IMG/VR virus record: IMGVR_UViG_2778261544_000009
Length of the DNA: 35,624 nucleotides
Strand: one strand, 5' to 3'
From: a virus
Taxonomy: Duplodnaviria; Heunggongvirae; Uroviricota; Caudoviricetes
Shown: positions 1-35,624 of the stretch, piece by piece
How the letters are laid out: the number at the start of each line of letters is the position of its first letter
How positions within the stretch are numbered: position 1 is the first letter of the stretch
Position numbers and translations under genes: made by a program
The notes under the pieces: model-generated
The model's input: the letters and a program-made list of their open reading frames with translations, nothing else
The model's database searches: none
What the model was told of the DNA's origin: nothing

Positions 1-594
1 TCAACCTGCCTTCGCTTTTAAACTGTGCGAGAGATTACTAGCTTCAATTTCTGCCAAAATCTCTCTAACTCTATCATCAGATAGATTATCTAGAAGTAGT
101 GCCGCTGCTCGTTTTCGCCCTTCTAATTGGATCAACTCTTGGTTCTCAGGTTCCAGTAAGCGCGACAAGTATTTGGCTCCATTTAGTGCCAGGAGTTTGG
201 ACAACCGCTCAGCCTCCGGTGATTCCAGGGCACTCAGAATAGCCAGGAGGCGTTGTTGTGTGATATCGAGTGGTTGGTTCTGGGCGTTGTTATCTGTTTG
301 AGGATGTAACGACTCTGCGTCTACCTTACCAAAAACAAGCCAATCAATACTTACTCCTTCTGCAAAAGCTATCTGGCTAGCTACTTGTAGAGATGGTATC
401 GCATCTTTCTCAAAATAGTTATTAAGTGTAGAGAATGGAAGCCCCCACGCTTTCGCAACAGCTGTTTTAGACCGACCACGCATTAACTTTGCCAGTCGTT
501 CCTTGATGCTTTCTTTTTGAAATGCTGGAAAAGAAAAATCACTTTCTTTTTTATCGTTTTTTTCTTTTCTCTTAACTGTATGATTCATAAGCAT
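1..594 (-). CDS. Putative immunity repressor (c-like), HTH protein
   Basis: 197-aa ORF divergent from ner at the left end of the early region, with a stop codon at window positions 1-3. Called by position; it lacks the LPGxP winged-helix motif seen at the N-terminus of the transposase, so it may not be a Mu-c-type repressor. Confidence 0.55.
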   Translation of the reverse strand: MLMNHTVKRKEKNDKKESDFSFPAFQKESIKERLAKLMRGRSKTAVAKAWGLPFSTLNNYFEKDAIPSLQVASQIAFAEGVSIDWLVFGKVDAESLHPQTDNNAQNQPLDITQQRLLAILSALESPEAERLSKLLALNGAKYLSRLLEPENQELIQLEGRKRAAALLLDNLSDDRVREILAEIEASNLSHSLKAKAG

Positions 595-728: not shown

Positions 729-965
729 ATGATGTCTATAAATGAAGTTGTAAAACAGGACTGGCACCCGGCACATGTTGTCGCTGCGGTGCATGTGAAA
801 GGCTTTACTTTGCGTTCGCTATCAGTTGAAGCAGGTTTAAACAAGGATTCTTTAAAGAATGCCTTGTACCGCAAATGCCCTAAGTATGAGCGCATTATTG
901 CTGATGCTATCGGTGTGGCTCCGGAGGAGATCTGGCCCAGCCGCTACGTTCGTAAGGTGGCGTAA
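729..965 (+). CDS. ner: Ner-like DNA-binding early regulator
   Basis: Small ORF directly upstream of the transposase; motif ...IIADAIGVAPEEIWPSRY... matches the Ner family C-terminus. Start chosen at the ATG at 729, preceded by AAGGA. Confidence 0.75.
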   Translation: MMSINEVVKQDWHPAHVVAAVHVKGFTLRSLSVEAGLNKDSLKNALYRKCPKYERIIADAIGVAPEEIWPSRYVRKVA

Positions 966-967
966 AA

Positions 968-3055
968 ATGTTTGTGTCTGTCAACGAACTCGTGGGGCTG
1001 CCTGGTATGCCGGGAAGTGCGCAAGGTGTGAGGTACACTATAAAAAAATTGGCCTCATCAGAGCATTTTCGACGCAAACGAGCAGGTACAAAAGCCATTG
1101 AGTACCACATTGATTGTCTGCCGGAAGCGACTCAAAAGGCGCTGCGTGAACGTTATGTGGAACAACTGGTAGCTACGGAGCACAACGTTTCCGAAGTTCA
1201 GGTCGTTACCAGGAAGGCGCGCAATCCTGATGCTGTCCAGGCAATCGAAGCATATCGCGGTTCGCCACAACTGATGGAAGAACGCCTGAATGCACTGACC
1301 GAAAATCAGCGTCGGGTATCTGAAGCAAGGGCTGCGCTGGTGGTGGAAGTGCTGAAGCTGGAAAGCGACGGTAATCTCGGGCGGCTGAAAGCCATTAACT
1401 ATCTTGTCGAAAAAGCCCGTAAAGGTGAACTACCGGAACGCCTGCAACAGGCCGCAGTTAACGCCAATGCAAAACGTGGCGCTAATCGCACCATCAGTCG
1501 TGACCCGCTTTATCAGTGGGTGCTGAAGTACAACCAGTCACTGAACGCCGCAGAACGGCTGCTGTTACTGGCACCAGGAAAACGCGACGAAATAAAACCG
1601 GAACAAATTAGCTGGCTACCTGAGTTTCTGGCGCAGTATCGCCAGGTGAATGGCAGACCTATGTCTGAAGCCTACGAGGATTTTGTCGCAGAATGGCAGC
1701 GTCGCCATGCGGACGAACCGTACATGCTGGAGGTGATGCCTTCTTACGATGTGGTTCGTTATGCCATGAAGAAATTGCCGGAAGTGGTGAAACAAAAAGG
1801 ACGCGTTACCGGCAGTGAATACCGTCAGCTTGAAGGATTCACCCGTCGCGACTGGACAGCTATGCCGGTGAATTATGTGTGGATTGGTGACGGTCACGGT
1901 ATGAAGCTGAAATGTGCGCATCCGATCCACGGGCGTCCATTCTCACCGGAAGTCACATTTGTGATCGACGGTGGAACACGGTTTGTTGTTGGCTGGAGTC
2001 TTGACCTTGCCGAGAACGTGTTCGCCGTTGCCGGTGCGATACAGCACGGCATTCGCAACCACGGAAAACCGTTTCTGTATTACTCGGATAATGGTTCTGG
2101 TGAAACGGCTGACATGCTGGACAAAGAGGTCGTAGGTATTCTGCCCCGCCTGGGGATTAAACACCCTACCGGTATTGCCGGTAATCCACAGGGGCGCGGC
2201 ATTATTGAACGCCTGAACCGGACACTGCCGATGCGTATAGCCAGGAGGTATCGCACCTATTTTGGCAAGGGTGCTGACCGGGAGTCGTTGCGTGTACTTA
2301 ACCGTGATCTGCGTTCAGCGTTTAACGCCATGCAACAGGACAAGCCTCTGAACGACCGCCAGAAAGCTGCAATGCGCGAGCTACCATCGTGGGCAGAGCT
2401 TATTGAGGCTATTCGTGAAGGCGTGGAATGGTACAACAACCGCCCGCATTCTGAGCTGCCGATGAAACCGAACGGGCGGCATTACAGCCCGGCAGAGTTC
2501 AGAAAAAAACGCCTGGCAGAAGAAGACACCGAAATTGAGTGGCTGAGTGATCTTGAGCTGCGTGACATGTTCCGCCCGATGGTGGAACGCCCGGTAAGAC
2601 GGTGCGAAATTCAGTGGCTGAACAATATTTACTACGCGCCGGAGTTGCGTGACGAACACGGTCGCAAAGTGCTTATCAGTTATGACATTCATGACGCCGA
2701 GCGAATTACGGTACGTCGCAAGGACGGTAGCTTTATCTGTGAGGCGATATGGAACGGCAATAAACGCGCAGCCTTTGCTGTCAGTGCTGAATATCACAAA
2801 CAACAGCAGCGTATTAAAGGAATGCGCAAACGTGCTGAGGAAAAAATTCGTGATGCTGAGGATGAAGGCATTCAGATTCTGGAGCACAAACAGACTGAAC
2901 CCTGGCTGGATAATGTTTATCGCCCGGTTGGTAATACGGTAACCATCCAGCAACAGGATTATGAGGAGGATTACGACGAAGATTATGAACGCGATTTCAG
3001 GCTGGGTTTGCAGAAACTTGCAGCCATACAGGAACAGGATGATCCGCTGGCCTGA
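968..3055 (+). CDS. A: DDE transposase A (MuA-like)
   Basis: 695 aa; N-terminal ELVGLPGMPGSAQGV winged-helix-like motif, central VWIGDGHG catalytic block, acidic C-terminus. Followed immediately by the B ATPase. Confidence 0.93.
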   Translation: MFVSVNELVGLPGMPGSAQGVRYTIKKLASSEHFRRKRAGTKAIEYHIDCLPEATQKALRERYVEQLVATEHNVSEVQVVTRKARNPDAVQAIEAYRGSPQLMEERLNALTENQRRVSEARAALVVEVLKLESDGNLGRLKAINYLVEKARKGELPERLQQAAVNANAKRGANRTISRDPLYQWVLKYNQSLNAAERLLLLAPGKRDEIKPEQISWLPEFLAQYRQVNGRPMSEAYEDFVAEWQRRHADEPYMLEVMPSYDVVRYAMKKLPEVVKQKGRVTGSEYRQLEGFTRRDWTAMPVNYVWIGDGHGMKLKCAHPIHGRPFSPEVTFVIDGGTRFVVGWSLDLAENVFAVAGAIQHGIRNHGKPFLYYSDNGSGETADMLDKEVVGILPRLGIKHPTGIAGNPQGRGIIERLNRTLPMRIARRYRTYFGKGADRESLRVLNRDLRSAFNAMQQDKPLNDRQKAAMRELPSWAELIEAIREGVEWYNNRPHSELPMKPNGRHYSPAEFRKKRLAEEDTEIEWLSDLELRDMFRPMVERPVRRCEIQWLNNIYYAPELRDEHGRKVLISYDIHDAERITVRRKDGSFICEAIWNGNKRAAFAVSAEYHKQQQRIKGMRKRAEEKIRDAEDEGIQILEHKQTEPWLDNVYRPVGNTVTIQQQDYEEDYDEDYERDFRLGLQKLAAIQEQDDPLA

Positions 3056-3129: not shown

Positions 3130-4062
3130 ATGACCGATATTAATGATGTTTTCAATACGATTAATGCGCTGATTTCCGACGGCGTAAAAACTCAGGGTGT
3201 TATTGCTAAAGAAGCGGGCGTGTCAGAGGCCACGCTATCGGAACTTCGCAAAGGTCGTTACAAAGGCGATACCGAAGGGATGCATGACAAATTACAGATG
3301 TGGCATCAGGACTGGCTGAAAAGCCAGGAATTGCCAGGCGCGCCGCAACTTGTGGAAACACAAACCCTCCGTGATTTGCGCGAGCTGTTTCAGACCGTGC
3401 GTGTTATGGGATGTATCAGCGTTCTGGTTGGTGTGCCGGGTGTTGGTAAAACCGTTGCGGCCCGCGAATACAGTAACCGTGTATCTAATACCTGGATGGT
3501 GACCCTTTCCCCTGCACACTCAACAGTGACCGAGTGTCTGCTGGAACTGGCAGACGCACTGGGAATTGATAACCCGCAAAGGAGTAAAGGCGCGCTGACC
3601 CGTGCCATTCGCAAAAAACTGAACGGCACACGCGGTCTGGTGATTGTGGATGAAGCTGACCATCTGAGCATGGACGGGCTGGAGCAGTTGCGCGCCATTC
3701 AGGATGCAACAGGCGTCGGGATGGTATTGATTGGTAACCCAAGCCAGTTAGCCAAAGCCACACACCGGGGAACGGATGACCTTGCGCGTTTGTTCAGCCG
3801 TTTCGCCAGAACAAAACAACTGCGTAAAGCCAAAAAGGCTGATGTGGTGGCAATTGCGAAAGCCTGGGGCATTGAGGGTGAAGATGAATTATCACTCATG
3901 CAGAGCATAGCGGAAAAACCAGGTGCATTACGTGTATTAACTCATACGTTGAATCAGGCATGGCTGGCAGCCAGCGGGAAAGGTGTTCCGTTATCCAAAG
4001 GCTACATTAAAGCGGCTTTTAAAGAGGTTTACAGCAACCCGAAGTTACTGAACTGGTGGTAA
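3130..4062 (+). CDS. B: Transposition ATPase B (MuB-like AAA+)
   Basis: 310 aa with Walker A GVPGVGKT and Walker B VIVDEADHL; sits directly after the transposase. Confidence 0.9.
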   Translation: MTDINDVFNTINALISDGVKTQGVIAKEAGVSEATLSELRKGRYKGDTEGMHDKLQMWHQDWLKSQELPGAPQLVETQTLRDLRELFQTVRVMGCISVLVGVPGVGKTVAAREYSNRVSNTWMVTLSPAHSTVTECLLELADALGIDNPQRSKGALTRAIRKKLNGTRGLVIVDEADHLSMDGLEQLRAIQDATGVGMVLIGNPSQLAKATHRGTDDLARLFSRFARTKQLRKAKKADVVAIAKAWGIEGEDELSLMQSIAEKPGALRVLTHTLNQAWLAASGKGVPLSKGYIKAAFKEVYSNPKLLNWW

Positions 4063-5032: not shown

Positions 5033-5332
5033 GTGGTGACCGGAATGATGTGTAATCGTAAACGCTGGTCACGCGAAGACCGGGAATTTATCGAAGCCAG
5101 TGTCGGAAAAATGACCGTTGAAGAAATGGCGAAAAAACTGAAAGTTGCCACAACCGCCCTCCGGGCACATGCCAGAAGGCACGGAATATCGTTGTGTGCA
5201 TACCGAATCAGTGAGCACGACAAATATTTGTGTCGTGAACTTTATAAAGAAGGGCTGGCTATTCATGTCATTGCCCAAAAGATGGAATTAAGCAATCGTG
5301 CTGTATCCAGCATTGTATACAGCGAATATTAA
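5033..5332 (+). CDS. Hypothetical early protein with HTH-like segments
   Basis: 99-aa ORF starting at a GTG (first ATG at 5045); contains two helix-turn-helix-like stretches. Confidence 0.45.
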   Translation: MVTGMMCNRKRWSREDREFIEASVGKMTVEEMAKKLKVATTALRAHARRHGISLCAYRISEHDKYLCRELYKEGLAIHVIAQKMELSNRAVSSIVYSEY

Positions 5333-5351
5333 TTAACAGGAGCTTTATTAT

Positions 5352-5876
5352 ATGGCTAAACCAGCAAAACGAATCAAGAGTGCCGCAGCAGCTTATGTTC
5401 CTCAATCCCGCGATGCCGTGGTGTGTGATATTCGCCGGATTGGTGACCTGCAACGCGAAGCGGCACGACTTGAAACGGAAATGAATGACGCTATCGCTGA
5501 GATTACAGAGAAATACGCCTCACAGATTGCGCCCCTTAAAACCAGTATTGAAACCCTTTCAAAAGGCGTTCAGGGATGGTGTGAAGCGAACCGCGACGAA
5601 CTGACGAACGGCGGCAAGGTGAAGACGGCAAACCTGGTAACCGGCGATGTGTCATGGCGTCAGCGCCCACCATCGGTAAGTATTCGCGGTGTGGATGCGG
5701 TGATGGAAACGCTGGAGCGTCTTGGCCTGCAACGCTTTATTCGCACGAAACAGGAAATCAACAAGGAAGCGATTTTACTGGAACCGAAAGCGGTCGCAGG
5801 TGTTGCCGGAATTACAGTTAAATCGGGAATTGAAGATTTTTCTATTATTCCGTTTGAACAGGAAGCCGGTATTTAA
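5352..5876 (+). CDS. gam: Host-nuclease inhibitor Gam
   Basis: 174 aa starting MAKPAKRIKSAAAAYVPQ... and ending ...FSIIPFEQEAGI, which matches my recollection of Mu Gam. Confidence 0.85.
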   Translation: MAKPAKRIKSAAAAYVPQSRDAVVCDIRRIGDLQREAARLETEMNDAIAEITEKYASQIAPLKTSIETLSKGVQGWCEANRDELTNGGKVKTANLVTGDVSWRQRPPSVSIRGVDAVMETLERLGLQRFIRTKQEINKEAILLEPKAVAGVAGITVKSGIEDFSIIPFEQEAGI

Positions 5877-5916
5877 TACCACCACGAATATTTAATTAAT
5901 TCACTTTCTTTTAATT

Positions 5917-6201
5917 ATGGCGCGATGCGTCAGGGGATTGCTCGCGCCTGAATCTGAAATGGTGATGTTTATGACCACAAAGAGTGAACGACAAAAAACA
6001 GAAATAACAGCAGCAACGCTGATTAAAGACAGCGTCGAATGTCTGGCATCAGTACCTGCATTGATTCAACAGGCGAATGCAAAAAATCTCCGTCGCGCAG
6101 CTTCGTTTATTCGTGCAGGCATTACCCGCCAGATGATGATTGCGCAGCTGTGTATGCGCGAAGCACAGCGTCTGGAACAGATGGAGACGAGTGGTGATTA
6201 A
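5917..6201 (+). CDS. Hypothetical early protein
   Basis: 94-aa ORF; the true start may be one of the internal ATGs. Confidence 0.45.
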   Translation: MARCVRGLLAPESEMVMFMTTKSERQKTEITAATLIKDSVECLASVPALIQQANAKNLRRAASFIRAGITRQMMIAQLCMREAQRLEQMETSGD

Positions 6202-6376
6202 GTCAATTGGCTTTGTCCTGCTGGTTGGCACCTGTGGGAATGATGCCTGTGATGCTATCCCGGTAACAGAAAAAATCTGGCCCACCGAGCAGGCATGTAT
6301 GCAGGTGATGGAGCGCATACAAAAACATTATCCCAATGAAATCTTTTATTGCGAGGAGGTATTAAGAAATGAATAA
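6191..6376 (+). CDS. Small Cys-rich putative secreted protein or lipoprotein
   Basis: GGAG RBS followed by a GTG start at 6191; hydrophobic N-terminus IGFVLLVGTC followed by a Cys-rich stretch. The lipobox match is imperfect. Confidence 0.35.
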   Translation: MVIKSIGFVLLVGTCGNDACDAIPVTEKIWPTEQACMQVMERIQKHYPNEIFYCEEVLRNE

Positions 6377-6758
6377 CGCAGAGAAAAATGAAATTAAATC
6401 CACATCCGCCAGCACCAGAAAACATCTTTATGATTTTTATGTCGCTTATAACCAGTGGTTAAAAAACGGAGCGCAAGAAACGGAAGGGGAAGGGTTTATT
6501 CGGGGAGTCGGATTATGCGCCAATGTTTATGACTATTTTGAATCAATCGGAGCAGACAGCGAGGCTGCGCTAGAACAATTACATGCGGATTTTGTCGCGA
6601 GTGGGCTGGATGAATCCCTGCCATTTAATGTAGATAACGTGCACTACCATGATGAATGCCTGCATGACAGATGCCACCTGAATTCTGCTCGTGTGGCATG
6701 GGTCGAAAAACACTGCATTAAGGAGATGGGGCAAAATGAGTCGCACATCCCTGATTAA
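6369..6758 (+). CDS. Hypothetical early protein (129 aa)
   Basis: Excellent RBS GAGGAGG 9 nt upstream of the ATG. Confidence 0.6.
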   Translation: MNNAEKNEIKSTSASTRKHLYDFYVAYNQWLKNGAQETEGEGFIRGVGLCANVYDYFESIGADSEAALEQLHADFVASGLDESLPFNVDNVHYHDECLHDRCHLNSARVAWVEKHCIKEMGQNESHIPD

Positions 6759-7287
6759 ATTAATTCATGTTGCCCGCCGGGAGTTGCACCTCGACGATGA
6801 CACTTACCGCGCCTTTCTGGTGCAGTGCACGGGCAAAACCAGTTGCCGCGAGCTGTCCGTTGCACAACTGGAACAAGTGCTCGATGCCATGAAAGAGCGC
6901 GGTTTTAAAAAGCAGAAAAAACATCCCCGCCGTCGCTTTAAGGGGCATGTCACACCGCGCGAGAAGATTTATAAAATCTGGCAGCAGATGTTTCTTGATG
7001 GTTTCGTCTCCGATATCAGCGACGCCGCGCTGGACAAATACGTTGAGCGCCTGACAGCCAGACGTAATGGCGGACAGGGTGTTTCCACGCTGGCCTGGTG
7101 TCACGGGGAATCGTTGCAGGTTGTGCTCGAAACGCTCAAACAGTGGCATATGCGCTGCATCCGGGAAGCCTTTGCCCGACATGGTGTGCCTTTACCTGTG
7201 AGCGAAACCGGGCGGGAGCTGCGCGGCTATGATGCACTGACCAGTGCATATGCCCGCGCACGAAACAGCGGGAGAATTGCTGTATGA
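6736..7287 (+). CDS. gemA: GemA-like protein (Mu gp16 family)
   Basis: Sequence MSRTSLIKLIHVARRELHLDDDTYRA... is Mu gp16-family-like and the gene sits directly before mor. Start taken at the internal ATG at 6736. Confidence 0.65.
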   Translation: MSRTSLIKLIHVARRELHLDDDTYRAFLVQCTGKTSCRELSVAQLEQVLDAMKERGFKKQKKHPRRRFKGHVTPREKIYKIWQQMFLDGFVSDISDAALDKYVERLTARRNGGQGVSTLAWCHGESLQVVLETLKQWHMRCIREAFARHGVPLPVSETGRELRGYDALTSAYARARNSGRIAV

Positions 7288-29684: not shown

Positions 29685-30215
29685 ATGGAACTCAGAAACG
29701 TCACGCGTTATTACCCGGAAGAGATGCCTTATGGTGAAAACATTCAGTATTTCCGCAGTGAAGACGGACAGGATTTTTATGAATCACTGGATAAATTCAC
29801 GAAGAAATACAAATTGTGTATTCACCCTGAAAGCGGCGTGATTTATTCAATGGCGGAAGACGTGTCCCGTCTTTATCCGGCTGGCTTCACCATTGTGGAA
29901 GTGGATGAACTGCCGGAAGGTTTTGGCATTGAAGCCAGCTGGTATTACAAAGACGGCGAAGTGCTGCCGGTTCCTGTTGATTACTCGCGACTGGCAGAAA
30001 AAAAACGCCAGAGCCTGCTGAATGAAGCGAAGGACATCACCTCCGACTGGAAAACCGAGCTGGAGCTGGGCACCATCAGCGACGATGATAAAGCCCGTCT
30101 TACGCAGTGGATGGCATATATCAAAGCGGTAAAGGCACTGGATTTAAGCACCGTTACTGACGAAGCCTCCTTTTACTCCATCAACTGGCCGGAGCGTCCC
30201 GATGCCGCAGCTTAA
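29685..30215 (+). CDS. Tail fiber assembly protein (Tfa/U-like)
   Basis: AAGGAG RBS then ATG at 29685; ends ...INWPERPDAAA, typical of Tfa chaperones. Confidence 0.7.
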   Translation: MELRNVTRYYPEEMPYGENIQYFRSEDGQDFYESLDKFTKKYKLCIHPESGVIYSMAEDVSRLYPAGFTIVEVDELPEGFGIEASWYYKDGEVLPVPVDYSRLAEKKRQSLLNEAKDITSDWKTELELGTISDDDKARLTQWMAYIKAVKALDLSTVTDEASFYSINWPERPDAAA

Positions 30216-33200
30216 AGGTGTGATTAAAACGCCCACGGGAGAACCGCTGGGCGGCGCAACAATTACACTGACCTCCCTGCACAACCGTGCAGGGATTCTG
30301 AAAAGTGTTTTCAGCCATGTCACCACACAGAGCGGGGAGTACGACTTCCCCGTTCTGCCGGGTGTGTACAGCGTTCGCCTGACACAAAGCACACAGCGCC
30401 TTTCAGAAATCGGTGTCATCCGCGTTTATGAGGATTCAGCGGACGGTTCGCTGAATGATTTTCTGGGCGCAACCGATATTGACCTGCGCCCGGAAGCCCT
30501 GAAGAAATTCGAGGAACTGGCGCAACAGGCGCAGCAAAGCGCAGAAAAAGCAGGAGAGCACGCCACCGCTGCTGAACAGGCCCGCCAGGATACAGAAACG
30601 CTCGCCTGGGAAATACAGCAGGATGCAGAAGAAATTGCGGGTAATGTGCAGAAAGCTGAAGAGCTGGCCTCTGAAACAAACCAGAATGCCGCCCGCGCAG
30701 AGCAGGCTGTCAAGGATGCTGACGCGATAGTCCAGAAAGCGGTCGATAAACTTGCTGATGCTGCAACGCTGACCGGCGAGGCAAAAGCCAGCGCCGAAGC
30801 GGCAGCAAAAAGCGAACAGAACTCGAAACAGCACAGGGACGAGGCGCAACGGATAGTTGATGACCTGAAGGGAAGCAATGCCTCCACGACGGAAAAAGGC
30901 CTGGTGCAACTCTGTAGTGATACAGACAACGACAGCGAAGAACTGGCAGCCACACCAAAGGCTGTCAAAACCGTCATGGACGAGACGAAAACAAAAGCTC
31001 CACTGGACAGCCCGGTGTTCACCGGCACGCCAACCACACCAACCCCACCGGATGATGCAGTCGGTCTGGAAACCGCGAACGCGGCATTTGTTCGCAAACT
31101 GCTCGCCGCACTGGTTGACTCGTCACCGGAAGCCCTGGACACACTGAATGAGCTGGCAGCGGCGCTGGGCAATGACCCGGAGTTCGCGACAACAATCATG
31201 AACGCGCTGGCGGGTAAACAACCACTCAGTGACGTGTTAACCGCAATCAGTAATCTGGAAGAACGGGCAGATAATCTTCTGTGCTTTAATCAGGACGGGA
31301 ATGCTTCACTGTCTCCGCTGTCAGAAAAAGCCCGGTCACTGCTGGCACAGGCCACAGTGGAAGCCATGCGCAATGAGCTTGAGCTGAAAAGCGCGGCGGT
31401 AAAGGACATTCAGACAGACCTTTACGACAGCTCGGAAGGCCGTGTTGCGCTGCCTGGTGCATTTGGTTACGGAATGACGGACGCCGGAGCGCGTTCAATT
31501 ATTGCCAGCGATATGGCGACTGTAGCCAGAACTGCGCACAACCTGCACCCGGGACGGTATTACACCTTTTCCACACAAACGGAAGAGACGACCGGAATAA
31601 CAGAAATTATCTGGCTGGATAATGGCTGGGGCGACAAAACAAGCCAGACAGCAACAAAGCTGGTTCTGTTTTTTGGAAAAGACGGACGGATTCTTATGAC
31701 CGTTCGTGGCGATAATATCTCCGCCCCGGTCACCTGGACGAATCTGACGCTACAACTGGGCAATGCAGCACAGAAGGATGCACAGGAGAATATTTACGAC
31801 CGCACCGAAGGCCGTCTGGCGATTCCCGGCATGTTTGGATTCGGGAAAGTATTTTCCAGCGGCGACAGGACCGAATTTAAAACAGAGGCCGATTTTCTCC
31901 GCTGGGTAAAAACAGCAAAACCCGGTCGTTATGTCGTTTATGGCGCAGATAAAGTGATTCCCGGAGTCCTGTTCAGCGGCACCGTTGAAATTATCTGGCC
32001 GGAACCTCAAACCAACTCCAATCCGGTATATGTGGCCAAAATCATTATTTTTTACGGTATTAACGGCCATATTTATTACAATCGCTACTGGACTACCGGA
32101 GATGGTTATCTGGTTGGCTGGGAAAACCTGAAAGTCAACGAGGCTTCACTCCGGGCACTGATTGAAACCCGCGCGCCACTGAACAGCCCGGCACTGACCG
32201 GAACGCCGTCCACGCCAACACCACCAGATGATGCAGCAGGTAATGAAATAGCCAATGCGGAGTTTGTCCGCAAACTGCTTGCCGCGCTGGTTGGCTCATC
32301 ACCGGAAGCCCTGGACACGCTGAACGAACTGGCGGCGGCACTGGGCAATGACCCGAACTTTGCGACAACAGTCACTAATGCACTGGCAGGTAAACAGCCG
32401 CTTAATGACGTGTTAACGGCTGTCAGCCAGATAACACCGGAAGAAAACACACTGCCTTATTTCAGTGAAGAGGGCCGGATTTTACTGGCGCAGCTGTCAG
32501 AAAAAGCCCGCGCATTACTGGCACTGGACACACCTGAGGCCATGCGCACGGAGCTTGAACTGAAAGCGGCTGCGACGATGGAGCCCCAGAGCGATATCCG
32601 CGACCGCACACCAGGCAGACTGGCACTGTCCGGCATGTACGGATTCGGTCAGGCATTTGCCAGCACCGACGCCCTGACATTTACCGGACAGGCTGATTTT
32701 GCTGAATGGCTGAAAGAGGCCACCCCGGGGCGTTATGCGGTCAGTATTGCGGACTCTTCCACGCTGCTGGCTGGCACCACGAAATTTAACGGCATCATTG
32801 ATGTGATGTGGTCGCCCTTTGATAACGATGAATCGGACACAACGCGTAAATTCAAAACGTTGCTGTGTTTTAACCAGTATTACGAAGGCGAACACAGCAT
32901 TCATCGCCTGACTTACCGCTGGAGTGGAAACAACTGGAATGCAACAGTAAGCCCTGTCATTTACGACGGCGATTCGCTGGCGTTCTTACTCTCCCGGACA
33001 GCAGGCTCAGGCTCATATTACAAATATCCGGCAGTTGGTGTGCCGGTTATGGCGGCATATCAGGGGGAAAGTTTTGGTGCTGATGTGTCTCTGGGACTCG
33101 GTGATATTGTGCCGGGTTCCCGTCTTGGCCCTCTGGCTATGAGTGCTTCAGTTAGCGATACAGGGACATACGTATCCACACCGCAAGTGGCAATTGGTGG

Positions 33201-33306
33201 TGCCAGTGCATACAACTTTCCCGGTCGTTATATGGCGCTTTCGGGGTCACGCAGTAATCACGATACAAAACGTGGCTATATTGGTCTTTTTGTGCGTATC
33301 GAGTAA
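30202..33306 (+). CDS. Side tail fiber protein (lambda Stf / P2 H-like), 1034 aa with internal repeats
   Basis: N-terminus GVYSVRLTQ...IRVYEDSADGSLNDFLGA matches the Stf-family N-domain; two copies of the LAATPKAVK...APLxSPxxTGTPTTPTPPDD...LVDSSPEALDTLNELAAALGNDP collar repeat; three GRLAxPGxFGFG...PGRY tip-like modules. Confidence 0.85.
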   Translation: MPQLKGVIKTPTGEPLGGATITLTSLHNRAGILKSVFSHVTTQSGEYDFPVLPGVYSVRLTQSTQRLSEIGVIRVYEDSADGSLNDFLGATDIDLRPEALKKFEELAQQAQQSAEKAGEHATAAEQARQDTETLAWEIQQDAEEIAGNVQKAEELASETNQNAARAEQAVKDADAIVQKAVDKLADAATLTGEAKASAEAAAKSEQNSKQHRDEAQRIVDDLKGSNASTTEKGLVQLCSDTDNDSEELAATPKAVKTVMDETKTKAPLDSPVFTGTPTTPTPPDDAVGLETANAAFVRKLLAALVDSSPEALDTLNELAAALGNDPEFATTIMNALAGKQPLSDVLTAISNLEERADNLLCFNQDGNASLSPLSEKARSLLAQATVEAMRNELELKSAAVKDIQTDLYDSSEGRVALPGAFGYGMTDAGARSIIASDMATVARTAHNLHPGRYYTFSTQTEETTGITEIIWLDNGWGDKTSQTATKLVLFFGKDGRILMTVRGDNISAPVTWTNLTLQLGNAAQKDAQENIYDRTEGRLAIPGMFGFGKVFSSGDRTEFKTEADFLRWVKTAKPGRYVVYGADKVIPGVLFSGTVEIIWPEPQTNSNPVYVAKIIIFYGINGHIYYNRYWTTGDGYLVGWENLKVNEASLRALIETRAPLNSPALTGTPSTPTPPDDAAGNEIANAEFVRKLLAALVGSSPEALDTLNELAAALGNDPNFATTVTNALAGKQPLNDVLTAVSQITPEENTLPYFSEEGRILLAQLSEKARALLALDTPEAMRTELELKAAATMEPQSDIRDRTPGRLALSGMYGFGQAFASTDALTFTGQADFAEWLKEATPGRYAVSIADSSTLLAGTTKFNGIIDVMWSPFDNDESDTTRKFKTLLCFNQYYEGEHSIHRLTYRWSGNNWNATVSPVIYDGDSLAFLLSRTAGSGSYYKYPAVGVPVMAAYQGESFGADVSLGLGDIVPGSRLGPLAMSASVSDTGTYVSTPQVAIGGASAYNFPGRYMALSGSRSNHDTKRGYIGLFVRIE

Positions 33307-33320
33307 CGGGGAAATAAGAC

Positions 33321-33896
33321 ATGAAAATCAGAGCGATAAAAGGCATCAGAAATGCCCATTATCTCGAAAATGGTGCGGTTGACTGCGAGGTGTTATTTGA
33401 AGGTGAAACGGAATTCGTCCCGTATACCGCCATGCAGGATGATACCGCAATGACAGGCCAGCGCATCTGGGAAGAGTTACAGAGCGGCAAATGGGGTGAA
33501 ATCGCCCCGTTTACAGTCACGCCTGAACTTATCGCAGCGGCAAAAGATGCCAAAAAGATGGAAATCGAGGCGTGGCGCACAGAACAGGAGGCGCAGCCGT
33601 TCACGTTCGAATGGAACGGCCGCCCTTGGAATGCTGGCCCCGACTCACTGGCCCGTCTTTATCCGGTAGTAATGGCGGCGAAATCCGATACGGCAAGAAC
33701 CGCCCTTGCGTGGGGTGACGCCAATAATCAACAGGTGAAACTGTCAATGTCGGAACTGGAAGAACTGGCGGTAGCAATGGCGCAGGCGCAGCTCGATCGC
33801 AATGACGGGATTTATCAGCGCCAGCGTGAAATGAAGGAGCAGCTTTCCCGGCTGTCCATACTGGACGAGGTGAGAGCGTTAACTGTCGGTGATTAA
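33321..33896 (+). CDS. Putative tail fiber assembly/chaperone protein (second)
   Basis: 191-aa ORF immediately downstream of the large fiber gene. Confidence 0.55.
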   Translation: MKIRAIKGIRNAHYLENGAVDCEVLFEGETEFVPYTAMQDDTAMTGQRIWEELQSGKWGEIAPFTVTPELIAAAKDAKKMEIEAWRTEQEAQPFTFEWNGRPWNAGPDSLARLYPVVMAAKSDTARTALAWGDANNQQVKLSMSELEELAVAMAQAQLDRNDGIYQRQREMKEQLSRLSILDEVRALTVGD

Positions 33897-34019: not shown

Positions 34020-34205
34020 ATGGACTCTGTTCGCTGTAAAAACTGCAATAAATTACTGTTTAAAGGAGGTTTTAAGCATATAGAAATTAAATGCCCTCGC
34101 TGTAAACGTTACATTGTCATATCGAATGCCAAAGAGCATCCCACGGAGCTGTATTGTGGGAAAAGAGAAGAAATCACGCATTCTGACAAAACCCTGCGTT
34201 ATTGA
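34020..34205 (+). CDS. com: Com zinc-finger translational activator of mom
   Basis: 61 aa, CKNCNKLLF...CPRCKR zinc finger ending ...[10 protein letters not shown]; AGGGGGA RBS. An alternative ATG lies at 33993. Confidence 0.85.
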
Positions 34206-34851
34206 GTATGAAGGCCGGATTGTCGGCTATGGTTCAAAGGAGCTGCGCGTTGAAACCATATCCTGCTGGCTGGCCCGCACAATCATTCAGACAAAACACT
34301 ATTCCCGCCGTTTTGTGAATAACTCCTACCTGCATTTGGGCGTATTCAGCGGACGTGATCTGGTTGGTGTTCTTCAGTGGGGATATGCCCTTAACCCCAG
34401 CTCAGGGCGTCGTGTTGTGCTGGAAACGGATAACCGGGGCTATATGGAACTGAACCGCATGTGGCTACACGACGACATGCCCCGCAATTCTGAATCACGG
34501 GCCATCAGCTACGCGCTGAAAACCATCAGGTTACTGTACCCGTCAGTGGAGTGGGTTCAGTCCTTTGCAGACGAACGCTGCGGACGTGCTGGCATGGTAT
34601 ATCAGGCGTCGAATTTTGATTTTATAGGCAGCCACGAAAGCACGTTCTACGAACTGGACGGCGAGTGGTATCACGAGATAACGATGAACGCGATTAAGCG
34701 CGGAGGACAACGAGGCGAGTATTTACGGGCTAATAAGGAGCGGGCCGTGGTACACAAATTTAATCAGTATCGCTACATCAGATTCCTGAACAAGCGCGCA
34801 AAAAAGCGCCTAAACACTAAGCTATTCAGGGTTCAGCCATACCCGAAGTGA
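34126..34851 (+). CDS. mom: Mom DNA-modification protein
   Basis: Overlaps the 3' end of com, as in Mu. Start uncertain: TTG at 34114, ATG at 34126, or GTG at 34156. Confidence 0.8.
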
Positions 34852-34871: not shown

Positions 34872-34896
34872 AGCAGCGGTAAATGCCGCTGTTTTA
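34872..34896 (+). terminator. Terminator-like hairpin after mom
   Basis: Stem CAGCGG / loop TAAATG / CCGCTG followed by TTTTAT. Confidence 0.5.
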
Positions 34897-34976
34897 TCTT
34901 GAATAACTTCCATATGCGCGCTTCTGGCTTATCTTGAAAGAATTCCATATCTATCTTGAATAATTTTGCGCGCTTT
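34891..34976. repeat. Right-end (attR) terminal repeats, putative transposase binding sites
   Basis: Three direct copies of ATCTTGAA(T/A)A at 34895, 34930 and 34953; GCGCGCTT at 34915 and 34969. The phage sequence ends ...TTTTGCGCGCTTT(A) against host DNA. Confidence 0.6.
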
Positions 34977-35624
34977 AGTTTCTCTGGCGCGCTCCGTAAA
35001 CCCCGGGAACAGAGGCAGCTTGATTTCCCGACACATCTGAATGGCAAAGTGTTCTGCCATCAGCATAATGTCGCTTTCGCGCTCGCGCAGGGGCGGCAGT
35101 TGCACTACATCGAAAGCCAGCCGGTCGAGCAGGTCAGCGCGAAAATTACCTTCATTGACCATCGCCGGGAGATCGGCATTCGTCGCGCATACCAACCGCA
35201 CATTCACCTGCAATGGCTGGCTGCCGCCAACGCGCTCCAGTTCACCGTACTCAATCACACGCAATAATTTCTCCTGCACCATCATCGGTGCCGTAGCGAG
35301 TTCATCAAGAAATAGCGTACCGCCGTCGGCACGTTCAAATCTCCCTGGATGACGTTTTTGCGCACCGGTAAACGCGCCCGCTTCGTGACCAAACAGTTCG
35401 GAATCCAGCAGATTTTCATTTAACGCCGCGCAGTTAAGGGAAATAAACGGCCCCTGCCAACGGGAGGAGAGATAATGCAGACGGCTGGCAATCAGCTCTT
35501 TACCTGTGCCGCGCTCGCCGATGATGAGCACCGGTTTGTCCAGCGGTGCGAGATGCGAAACCTGTTCCAGCACTTCGAGAAAGCTGTTCGCCTCACCGAG
35601 TAAATTATCTTTGTATTCTGCCAT
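34977..35624 (-). pseudogene. pspF: Host pspF (sigma-54 activator of the phage-shock operon), 3' end truncated by the prophage
   Basis: The N-terminal ~216 aa (MAEYKDNLLGEANSFLEVLEQ...GERGTGKE...GFTERARET) match my recollection of E. coli PspF; after ERARET the frame runs 15 codons into phage DNA to a stop at 34929. Confidence 0.85.

Follow-up and report, generated by a model that had tools for sequence, protein, structure and literature searches.

Phage Mu duplicates 5 bp of target DNA on insertion, and its terminal CA dinucleotide is a conserved cleavage site (PMC3562280, PMC3145075). Other transposable phages depart from this pattern: D3112-like phages have TGT ends (PMC4378225), and 6-bp duplications are made by B3 and by prophages of Leptospira (PMC8705779). 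The Leptospira WETA group combines ‘unusual’ TA–TA ends with 6-bp duplications (Olo Ndela, Enault and Toussaint 2021, PMC8705779). Its prophages are present in multiple copies and were argued to be active, and TA–TA prophages in other bacteria were left for investigation in that study, which also states that the reasons for the conservation of the penultimate C and for the stagger length are not precisely understood. Here, we describe the right end of a Mu-like prophage of ~35.2 kb that is inserted in the Escherichia coli gene pspF. This end is contained in a 35,624-nt stretch of viral DNA (IMG/VR record IMGVR_UViG_2778261544_000009), referred to below as the window.

Positions 34891–34978 of the window are the right end of this prophage and its junction with pspF, in support of the original prediction (an earlier reading of the window), which had placed a Mu-family right end here. 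We estimate a probability of about 90% that 34895–34977 is the functional attR of an intact Mu-like prophage that has natural TA ends, makes a 4-bp target-site duplication and carries three putative transposase-binding repeats (R1–R3). In this active, widespread lineage TA is the natural terminus and not a defect. By gene content, architecture and behaviour the element is a Mu-family transposable phage rather than a new kind of element, but it lacks two usual hallmarks of the family, CA termini and Mu's 5-bp duplication. The original prediction had dealt with the repeats and the terminal dinucleotide and overlooked the more unusual feature, a duplication of 4 bp rather than 5 bp. The right end comprises the following features.

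34874–34899, plus strand: terminator after mom, a hairpin (CAGCGG-TAAATG-CCGCTG) followed by TTTTATCT; the hairpin is listed on the minus strand and the T-run is on the plus strand by direct reading
34895–34909, plus strand: R3, innermost putative transposase-binding site, TATCTTGAATAACTT; in direct orientation with R1 and R2, overlapping the T-run of the mom terminator
34916–34923, plus strand: inner GCGCGCTT motif, between R3 and R2
34930–34944, plus strand: R2, second putative binding site, TATCTTGAAAGAATT, 22 nt inward of R1
34952–34966, plus strand: R1, outermost putative binding site, TATCTTGAATAATTT; its complementary-strand core TTCAAGATA runs from base 18 of the terminus
34967–34977, plus strand: terminal 11 bp, TGCGCGCTTTA, with the 3′ dinucleotide TA at 34976–34977, the putative site of cleavage and end of the transferred strand; constant across insertions
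34978–34981, plus strand: right copy of the target-site duplication, GTTT, identified from the left junction and the empty site

Termini and position of the junction

From 34978 onwards the window is host DNA: up to its last base it matches the 5′ part of E. coli pspF, on the minus strand, with 100% identity. Uninterrupted pspF reads ...CAGCAATGTTTCTCTGG (in a longer reading, ...AATTCAGCAATGTTTCTCTGGCGCG), and the window reads ...GCGCGCTTTA joined to GTTTCTCTGGCGCG. Because the host base before GTTTC is T and the window has A at this place, the last prophage base is A34977. The 3′ end of the prophage is therefore ...TTTTGCGCGCTTTA, that is ...CTTTA, and no CA dinucleotide occurs in its last 30 nt. 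The original prediction was right that the terminus does not read CA, and the uninterrupted gene removes the ambiguity of 1–2 nt that it had attached to the junction.

The last 878 bp of the prophage were searched against 5426 complete E. coli genomes. The com–mom region is present in 97 of these, and the match reaches the very last base in only six records. Five of the six were aligned with the window, and the resulting six sequences are identical through ...TATCTTGAATAATTTTGCGCGCTTTA, after which each continues into unrelated host DNA. The six right junctions lie in pspF, in fliH, in an alanine-racemase-like gene, in vgr, next to a MolR-family gene fragment and at one other site. Other assemblies add two right junctions of this type (loci L040 and L043), giving eight independent insertions that all end in ...TTTTGCGCGCTTTA. 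The comparison of copies that the original prediction had recommended thus yields one and the same terminus.

The left end, a 246-bp segment with first bases TATGACTAGG, sits just beyond the start of the window. Left ends from four genomes open with TATGAC(T/C)A(G/A)GTAA, and exact-protein look-ups with the window transposase and repressor produced 16 more loci. (Matches were obtained with the transposase and with the repressor as called, at 195 aa; the 197-aa repressor open reading frame (ORF) gave no match in this look-up.) Seventeen different left flanks abut the same T of TATGAC (TATGACTAGG or TATGACCAAG), and the base before it varies. Contig NLNV01000006.1 of assembly GCA_002229815.1 (locus L023) and a second locus, L024, match the window with full identity over 6055 bp, and the left flank of both is the 3′ part of pspF. 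The window's Mom protein was found only on NLNV01000006.1 (L035). From the 6055-bp identity, the presence of Mom on the same contig and the 3′ pspF sequence at the left, the L023 junction is the window's own left junction; it reads ...CCAGCGATAATTCAGCAATGTTT joined to TATGACTAGGTAATTTATTCAAGATAA, also written ...CAGCAATGTTT joined to TATGAC.

Both ends are in one register and each reads 5′-TA, so that the element is 5′-TA...TA-3′ and not the conserved 5′-TG...CA-3′ of the Mu family. A left end beginning with TA in the same register is what the original prediction had named as the sign of a natural variant end, as opposed to a mutated one. As in the Mu family, insertion occurs at many unrelated chromosomal sites (17 left flanks and 8 right flanks).

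Target-site duplication

At the window insertion the left flank is ...AATGTTT, the right flank is GTTTCTC and the empty site is AATGTTTCTC; exactly GTTT is duplicated. If the phage T or A is counted as a fifth base, the two copies no longer match, whichever side is chosen. The other junction pairs show the following duplications.

ATTC: STEC346
CAGG: STEC388, in fliH
TTCA: VL40
CTAT: CP057408
TTCC: CAXJWJ01
AGAG: Mu-like insert in the Shiga toxin (Stx) 1 phage LC727895, whose depositors marked two 4-bp features as ‘duplication due to insertion’
ATTA: Sp18-like prophage in dcuC of an O157:H7 strain

A 4-bp duplication is found in eight of eight pairs, and 5 bp, the duplication of Mu proper (genus Muvirus), is ruled out in six of them. 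The occupation of many distinct sites, each with its own duplication, indicates repeated transposition with these ends.

Two loci were rejected as pairs: the narI copy of FDAARGOS_943 is truncated by ISEc60, and strain 06-00048 carries a Mu-type/TA-type hybrid with non-matching flanks. The right-end copy of STEC388 is truncated by ISCro1/IS26 and has no left end in place; its fliH left junction lies elsewhere in the chromosome. In the STEC388 chromosome (NZ_CP041425.1; L007 and L009) the halves of one fliH insertion are ~913 kb apart, with the right junction at 1,939,241 and the left junction at 2,852,469, as would result if prophage copies had taken part in a large rearrangement of the chromosome.

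Repeats at the right end

Direct reading and repeat finding both locate the 9-mer TATCTTGAA at 34895–34903, 34930–34938 and 34952–34960. These are its only three copies in the window (0.23 expected), a count reached in 0 of 100 shuffles, and the three direct repeats of the original prediction accordingly stand far above chance. The 10-mer of the original prediction, ATCTTGAA(T/A)A, is exact in two copies and reads ATCTTGAAAG in the middle one, and the three 15-nt units are spaced by 35 and 22 nt. Counted from the right terminus on the complementary strand, the TTCAAGATA cores begin at bases 18, 40 and 75; those at the left end begin at bases 18, 89 and 141 from the left terminus. There are thus three cores per end, inverted between the ends (L1–L3 at the left, beyond the window, and R1–R3 at the right).

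The second motif of the original prediction, GCGCGCTT, does lie at the two positions given (34916–34923 and 34968–34975). Its count in the window, three against 2.69 expected, is at chance level (three were reached in 51 of 100 shuffles), and we rejected it as a second functional motif. The inner copy is probably non-functional, because the motif is not enriched and this copy is absent from the right end of the Yersinia phage vB_YpM_5. A perfect 12-nt inverted repeat is formed by AAGCGCGCAAAA (34792–34803, inside the 3′ end of mom) and TTTTGCGCGCTT (34964–34975, at the prophage terminus). Its inner arm resembles an inward-facing copy of the terminal sequence; a chance origin is plausible because GCGCGC is self-complementary.

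Our model for these ends is as follows. The phage's own transposase would bind R1–R3 at the right end and the three inverted sites L1–L3 at the left. This transposase, a member of the SuMu/Sp18-like branch of the Mu transposase family, would then cleave after TA. The ends retain the terminal A that provides the 3′-OH and differ from Mu in the penultimate base only (T for C). The two ends would be joined to target phosphates 4 bp apart, which would generate the 4-bp duplication, GTTT in this case.

Transposase and MuB homologue

The transposase (695 aa) is a full-length member of phrog_310 (6e-197) and contains the Pfam domains Mu-transpos_C (PF09299, 1.6e-18) and HTH_Tnp_Mu_1 (PF02316, 2.7e-9). 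It aligns with MuA from end to end at 23% identity, with D308, D374 and E414 opposite MuA D269, D336 and E392, and its N-terminus matches the MuA domain structure 1tns. On sequence alone, retroviral integrase cores match the catalytic segment with scores as good as that of MuA. The adjacent ATPase contains the Phage-MuB_C domain (PF09077). The window element has components by which the Mu family is recognized: a MuA-type DDE transposase, a neighbouring MuB-type AAA+ ATPase and, at both ends, multiple repeats (putative transposase sites) inverted between the ends. The nearest phage transposases are those of vB_YpM_5/6 (84.5% identity), the Sp18-like inserts in Stx phages (74%), the Klebsiella phage Kp4866-3 (57%), SuMu and Mannheimia 3927AP2 (43–45%) and the D3112-like Pseudomonas phages (32%).

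Identity was compared in a sliding fashion across six transposases. Residues 200–600 are 86–100% identical among all six. Residues ~51–200, which match the end-binding domains of MuA in position, behave differently: they are 88–100% identical among phages with the TTCAAGATA core (the window, STEC346 and FDAARGOS_943), but 36–60% identical between phages with this core and those with the TTTGATAC core. Over residues 101–200, the two TTTGATAC phages are 68–76% identical to one another. This co-variation of residues ~51–200 with the repeat core is the best available evidence on the repeats and supports the proposal, already made in the original prediction, that they are transposase-binding sites; their symmetric placement at the two ends points the same way. 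The TA-3′ right terminus and the duplication of 4 bp, which these phages have in common, go with their shared catalytic region.

Compared with loci L050, L014, L015 and L049, the transposase falls into three modules. Residues 1–50 follow the immunity type (87% identity to vB_YpM_5 and 38–47% to the others), residues ~51–200 follow the end-repeat core, and residues 200–600 are nearly invariant. This three-part modularity is analogous to the difference between Mu and D108 in the enhancer-binding domain.

Alternative explanations

The original prediction had proposed that a former canonical CA terminus was mutated to TA, leaving a prophage impaired in transposition, a reading that draws on the conservation of CA as the cleavage site of Mu. 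We regard it as highly improbable. All eight independent right junctions share one TA terminus and all 17 left junctions begin with TA; the two ends are symmetric in register; each insertion has a clean 4-bp duplication of its own, as expected of transposition with these ends; and isolated phages share the terminus. The differing duplications at each site also exclude a single ancestral insertion that was moved around by host recombination. Equally little credence attaches to a boundary placed one base off on each side, by which the element would run ATGAC...GCTTT or have a canonical end elsewhere, the duplication would be 5 bp and the flanking T and A would reflect target preference. The fliH pair (CAGG plus T) and the dcuC pair (ATTA plus T) do fit 5 bp, since the host base that follows is T by chance, but in six pairs the fifth base is mismatched on both possible sides. 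Moreover, the empty pspF site has no extra T or A, which shows that these bases travel with the element, and the last 30 nt offer no CA at which an alternative end could be placed. A small probability, slightly above that of the two preceding readings, goes to the idea that the repeats serve some other factor, either a host protein or one that regulates mom or packaging, or are a by-product of the mom terminator. R3 does overlap the terminator T-run, and binding of the repeats by the transposase is putative. Yet each end has three copies of the 9-mer, inverted relative to the other end, with the outermost copy exactly 18 nt from the terminus, and the rest of the 35.6 kb has none; the R1–R2 spacing of 22 nt is that of Mu; and the switch of the core from TTCAAGATA to TTTGATAC accompanies the switch in transposase residues ~51–200.

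Several points weigh against a functional attR with natural TA ends. We infer binding of the repeats by the transposase and cleavage after TA from comparisons of sequence. The evidence of activity comes from the lineage, and inducibility of this particular copy is putative. The CAGG and ATTA pairs are ambiguous, as described above, and a real empty site was compared for the window insertion only, the other pairs being comparisons of flank with flank. Strain 06-00048 carries a window-type right end on a Mu-type phage, so such a right end does not by itself establish that an element is matched and mobile; the window element, unlike that of 06-00048, has the matching transposase and left end. No signs of decay were seen in the window: transposase, MuB homologue and repressor are all of full length, and the source contig carries both ends. 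The lineage is common, with the window repressor found in 582 blocks of the assembly collection and Sp18-type right ends in 215 of the 5426 complete E. coli genomes, at many loci. Its relatives vB_YpM_5/6 were isolated as infectious phages (PMC10434027), and Sp18 DNA is packaged efficiently (PMC2669165).

Gene content of the window

The main genes of the window are listed below.

1–588, minus strand: prophage repressor, 195 aa as called (to 594 for a longer ORF of 197 aa); its stop codon opens the window
729–965: ner, between the repressor and transposase genes
968–3055, plus strand: transposase A, intact
3130–4062, plus strand: MuB-like AAA+ transposition ATPase, 310 aa, 44% identity to MuB
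34020–34205, plus strand: com, with mom one of the last genes before the right end
34126–34851, plus strand: mom, the final gene ahead of the right end
34978–35624, minus strand: host pspF, codons 1–215 plus 2 nt (the promoter-proximal part), interrupted by the prophage

The remaining ORFs correspond to genes that the annotation of a closely related prophage, in strain STEC346, assigns to Mu-like lysis, head and tail functions. A single tail-fibre gene of 1034 aa (phage_tail_N, Phage_fiber_2) followed by a DUF4376 gene occupies 30202–33896. No invertible G segment or gin invertase was seen in the window, unlike in Mu, D108 and Sp18. On the host side, pspF is split after codon 215, within its sigma-54 activator (AAA+) domain, and a 231-codon ORF (34929–35624) continues from pspF into the end of the prophage. 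The host strain has probably lost the activator of the phage-shock operon and, with it, psp induction.

The com–mom DNA of the window is ~90% identical to that of Mu, SfMu and D108 and ~91% identical to that of vB_YpM_5/6. This module (~90–97% identical) is common to TA-type prophages and to Mu-type prophages that end in ...CGTGCGCCGCTTCA (L036–L045). Homology between the two types ends directly after the hairpin of the mom terminator, at ~34892; the ~80-bp right end is thus exchanged as a module that goes with the transposase type.

Strain 06-00048 (NZ_CP015229.1) combines both types in one prophage. It has the Mu/D108-type left end TGTATTGATTCACTTGAAGTACG (~4015–4040), a transposase (5293–7281) that is 92% identical to MuA and, at ~38920, a TA right end of the window type with TATCTTGAA repeats. 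Its flanks, GCGAT and TATAC, form no duplication. Recombination between co-resident Mu-like prophages probably gave rise to this hybrid, which is probably immobile because its transposase and right end are mismatched.

Significance

We lean towards a wider conclusion: the enterobacterial branch of Mu transposases that includes the window prophage, vB_YpM_5/6, the Sp18-like elements and the Klebsiella relative would natively use a TA-3′ transferred-strand end, accept TA or TG (YA) at the left and join to targets with a 4-bp stagger. If so, this would be the first group of transposable phages with a 4-bp duplication and the first with TA ends outside Leptospira; its occurrence in E. coli makes it directly accessible to the genetics and biochemistry of Mu. 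In our literature searches, neither a Mu-like duplication of 4 bp nor enterobacterial Mu-like phages with TA ends turned up in any paper. The ends are not discussed in the paper on clonal complex 119 (CC119) Shiga toxin-producing E. coli or in the Sp18 paper, and the sole trace of a 4-bp duplication that we found is the feature annotation of LC727895 in GenBank. A specialist in transposition would probably be modestly surprised.

Mu, many bacterial DDE transposons and retroviral integrases have few features as conserved as the CA-3′ terminus and a fixed target stagger. The TA-type elements offer a natural comparison, in which transposases 86–100% identical in the catalytic region are associated with TA/TA or TG/TA ends and 4-bp duplications. 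They occur beside true Mu (CA, 5 bp) in the same species and sometimes in the same cell, and exchanges of domains and ends between Mu and the TA type could map the determinants of the end dinucleotide and of the stagger length. In practice, boundary tools and annotators that expect TG...CA with a 5-bp repeat will misplace the ends of this common prophage type of E. coli, Shigella and Yersinia.

Comparison with known transposable phages

Among the enterobacterial relatives, vB_YpM_5 has the ends TATGAAGAGG... (in full, TATGAAGAGGTAAATCATTTGATAC...) and ...TTTTGCGCGCTTTA (...GGTATCAAATGATTTTGCGCGCTTTA), and its terminal 14 bp are identical to those of the window. Unlike the window, vB_YpM_5/6 have the TTTGATAC core, and their transposases are only 40–60% identical to that of the window over residues 51–200. 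The ends and the duplication of these phages are not discussed in PMC10434027. The ‘circular’ record of vB_YpM_5 (MT374853.1, 3700–6100; locus L013, positions ~946–1036) contains 77 bp of unrelated DNA between ...CGCTTTA and TATGAAG.... This stretch is probably host DNA that was packaged with the genome and joined in assembly, so that the record would be no true circle, and it is the sole hint of the variable host DNA that Mu-family phages, by headful packaging from integrated copies, carry at both ends of the virion DNA. The records of two more distant relatives, VW-6B and ST405-OXA48phi1.1, are trimmed to genes and were rejected as sources of ends.

Sp18 of E. coli O157:H7 Sakai and the Mu_JNE122137-type element (LC727895) have a transposase that is 74% identical to the window's overall and 86–96% identical over residues 200–600. 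They share the TA-3′ right end and the 4-bp duplication with the window element, but differ from it in the left end, which is TG, in the TTTGATAC core and in the late and immunity regions. The Sp18-like elements and Kp4866-3 alike combine a left TG with a right TA and have cores of the TTTGATAC type. The SuMu-like phages of Pasteurellaceae, represented by Haemophilus/Glaesserella phage SuMu and Mannheimia 3927AP2, stand further away in their transposases. Near the right end of the SuMu record (NC_019455.1, ~36880–36900) the sequence reads ...GAAAATTTTGCGAGTTTATAATACC, followed by a fragment of an insertion sequence (IS)-like transposase. Within it, TTTTGCGAGTTTA resembles the window's TTTTGCGCGCTTTA, and the TA-3′ right terminus may extend to these phages; this single record does not fix the termini or the duplication of SuMu.

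The Leptospira WETA prophages resemble the window element in having TA at both ends of a transposable prophage. They differ from it in their 6-bp duplication and in their B3/Tn552-like TnpA, and they belong to a different phylum.

The window element shares with Mu, D108 and SfMu the gene order c-ner-A-B ... com-mom, the MuB partner and the use of many insertion sites, and the late genes of closely related prophages are annotated like those of Mu. As in the attR of Mu, three sites lie within ~80 bp of the right end, and the 22 nt from R1 to R2 correspond to the contiguous 22-bp arrangement in Mu; the left end has one site plus two spaced sites, again as in Mu. The right terminal stretch (TGCGCG-CTTTA) resembles that of Mu (TGCGCCGCTTCA), and the left ends are homologous inward of L1, where Mu has ACCGGGAGGACATTGG and the window element has A(A/T)CGGGAAGAGATTGG. 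When the right end of Mu is read against the known consensus of MuA sites, R3 is inverted, whereas it is direct here. The combination of a MuA-type transposase with MuA consensus sites that defines Mu proper is not found in the window element, whose site core is TTCAAGATA rather than the CGAAA-type consensus of Mu. The element departs from Mu further in its TA...TA ends in place of TG...CA, in its 4-bp rather than 5-bp duplication and in a transposase that has diverged far from MuA.

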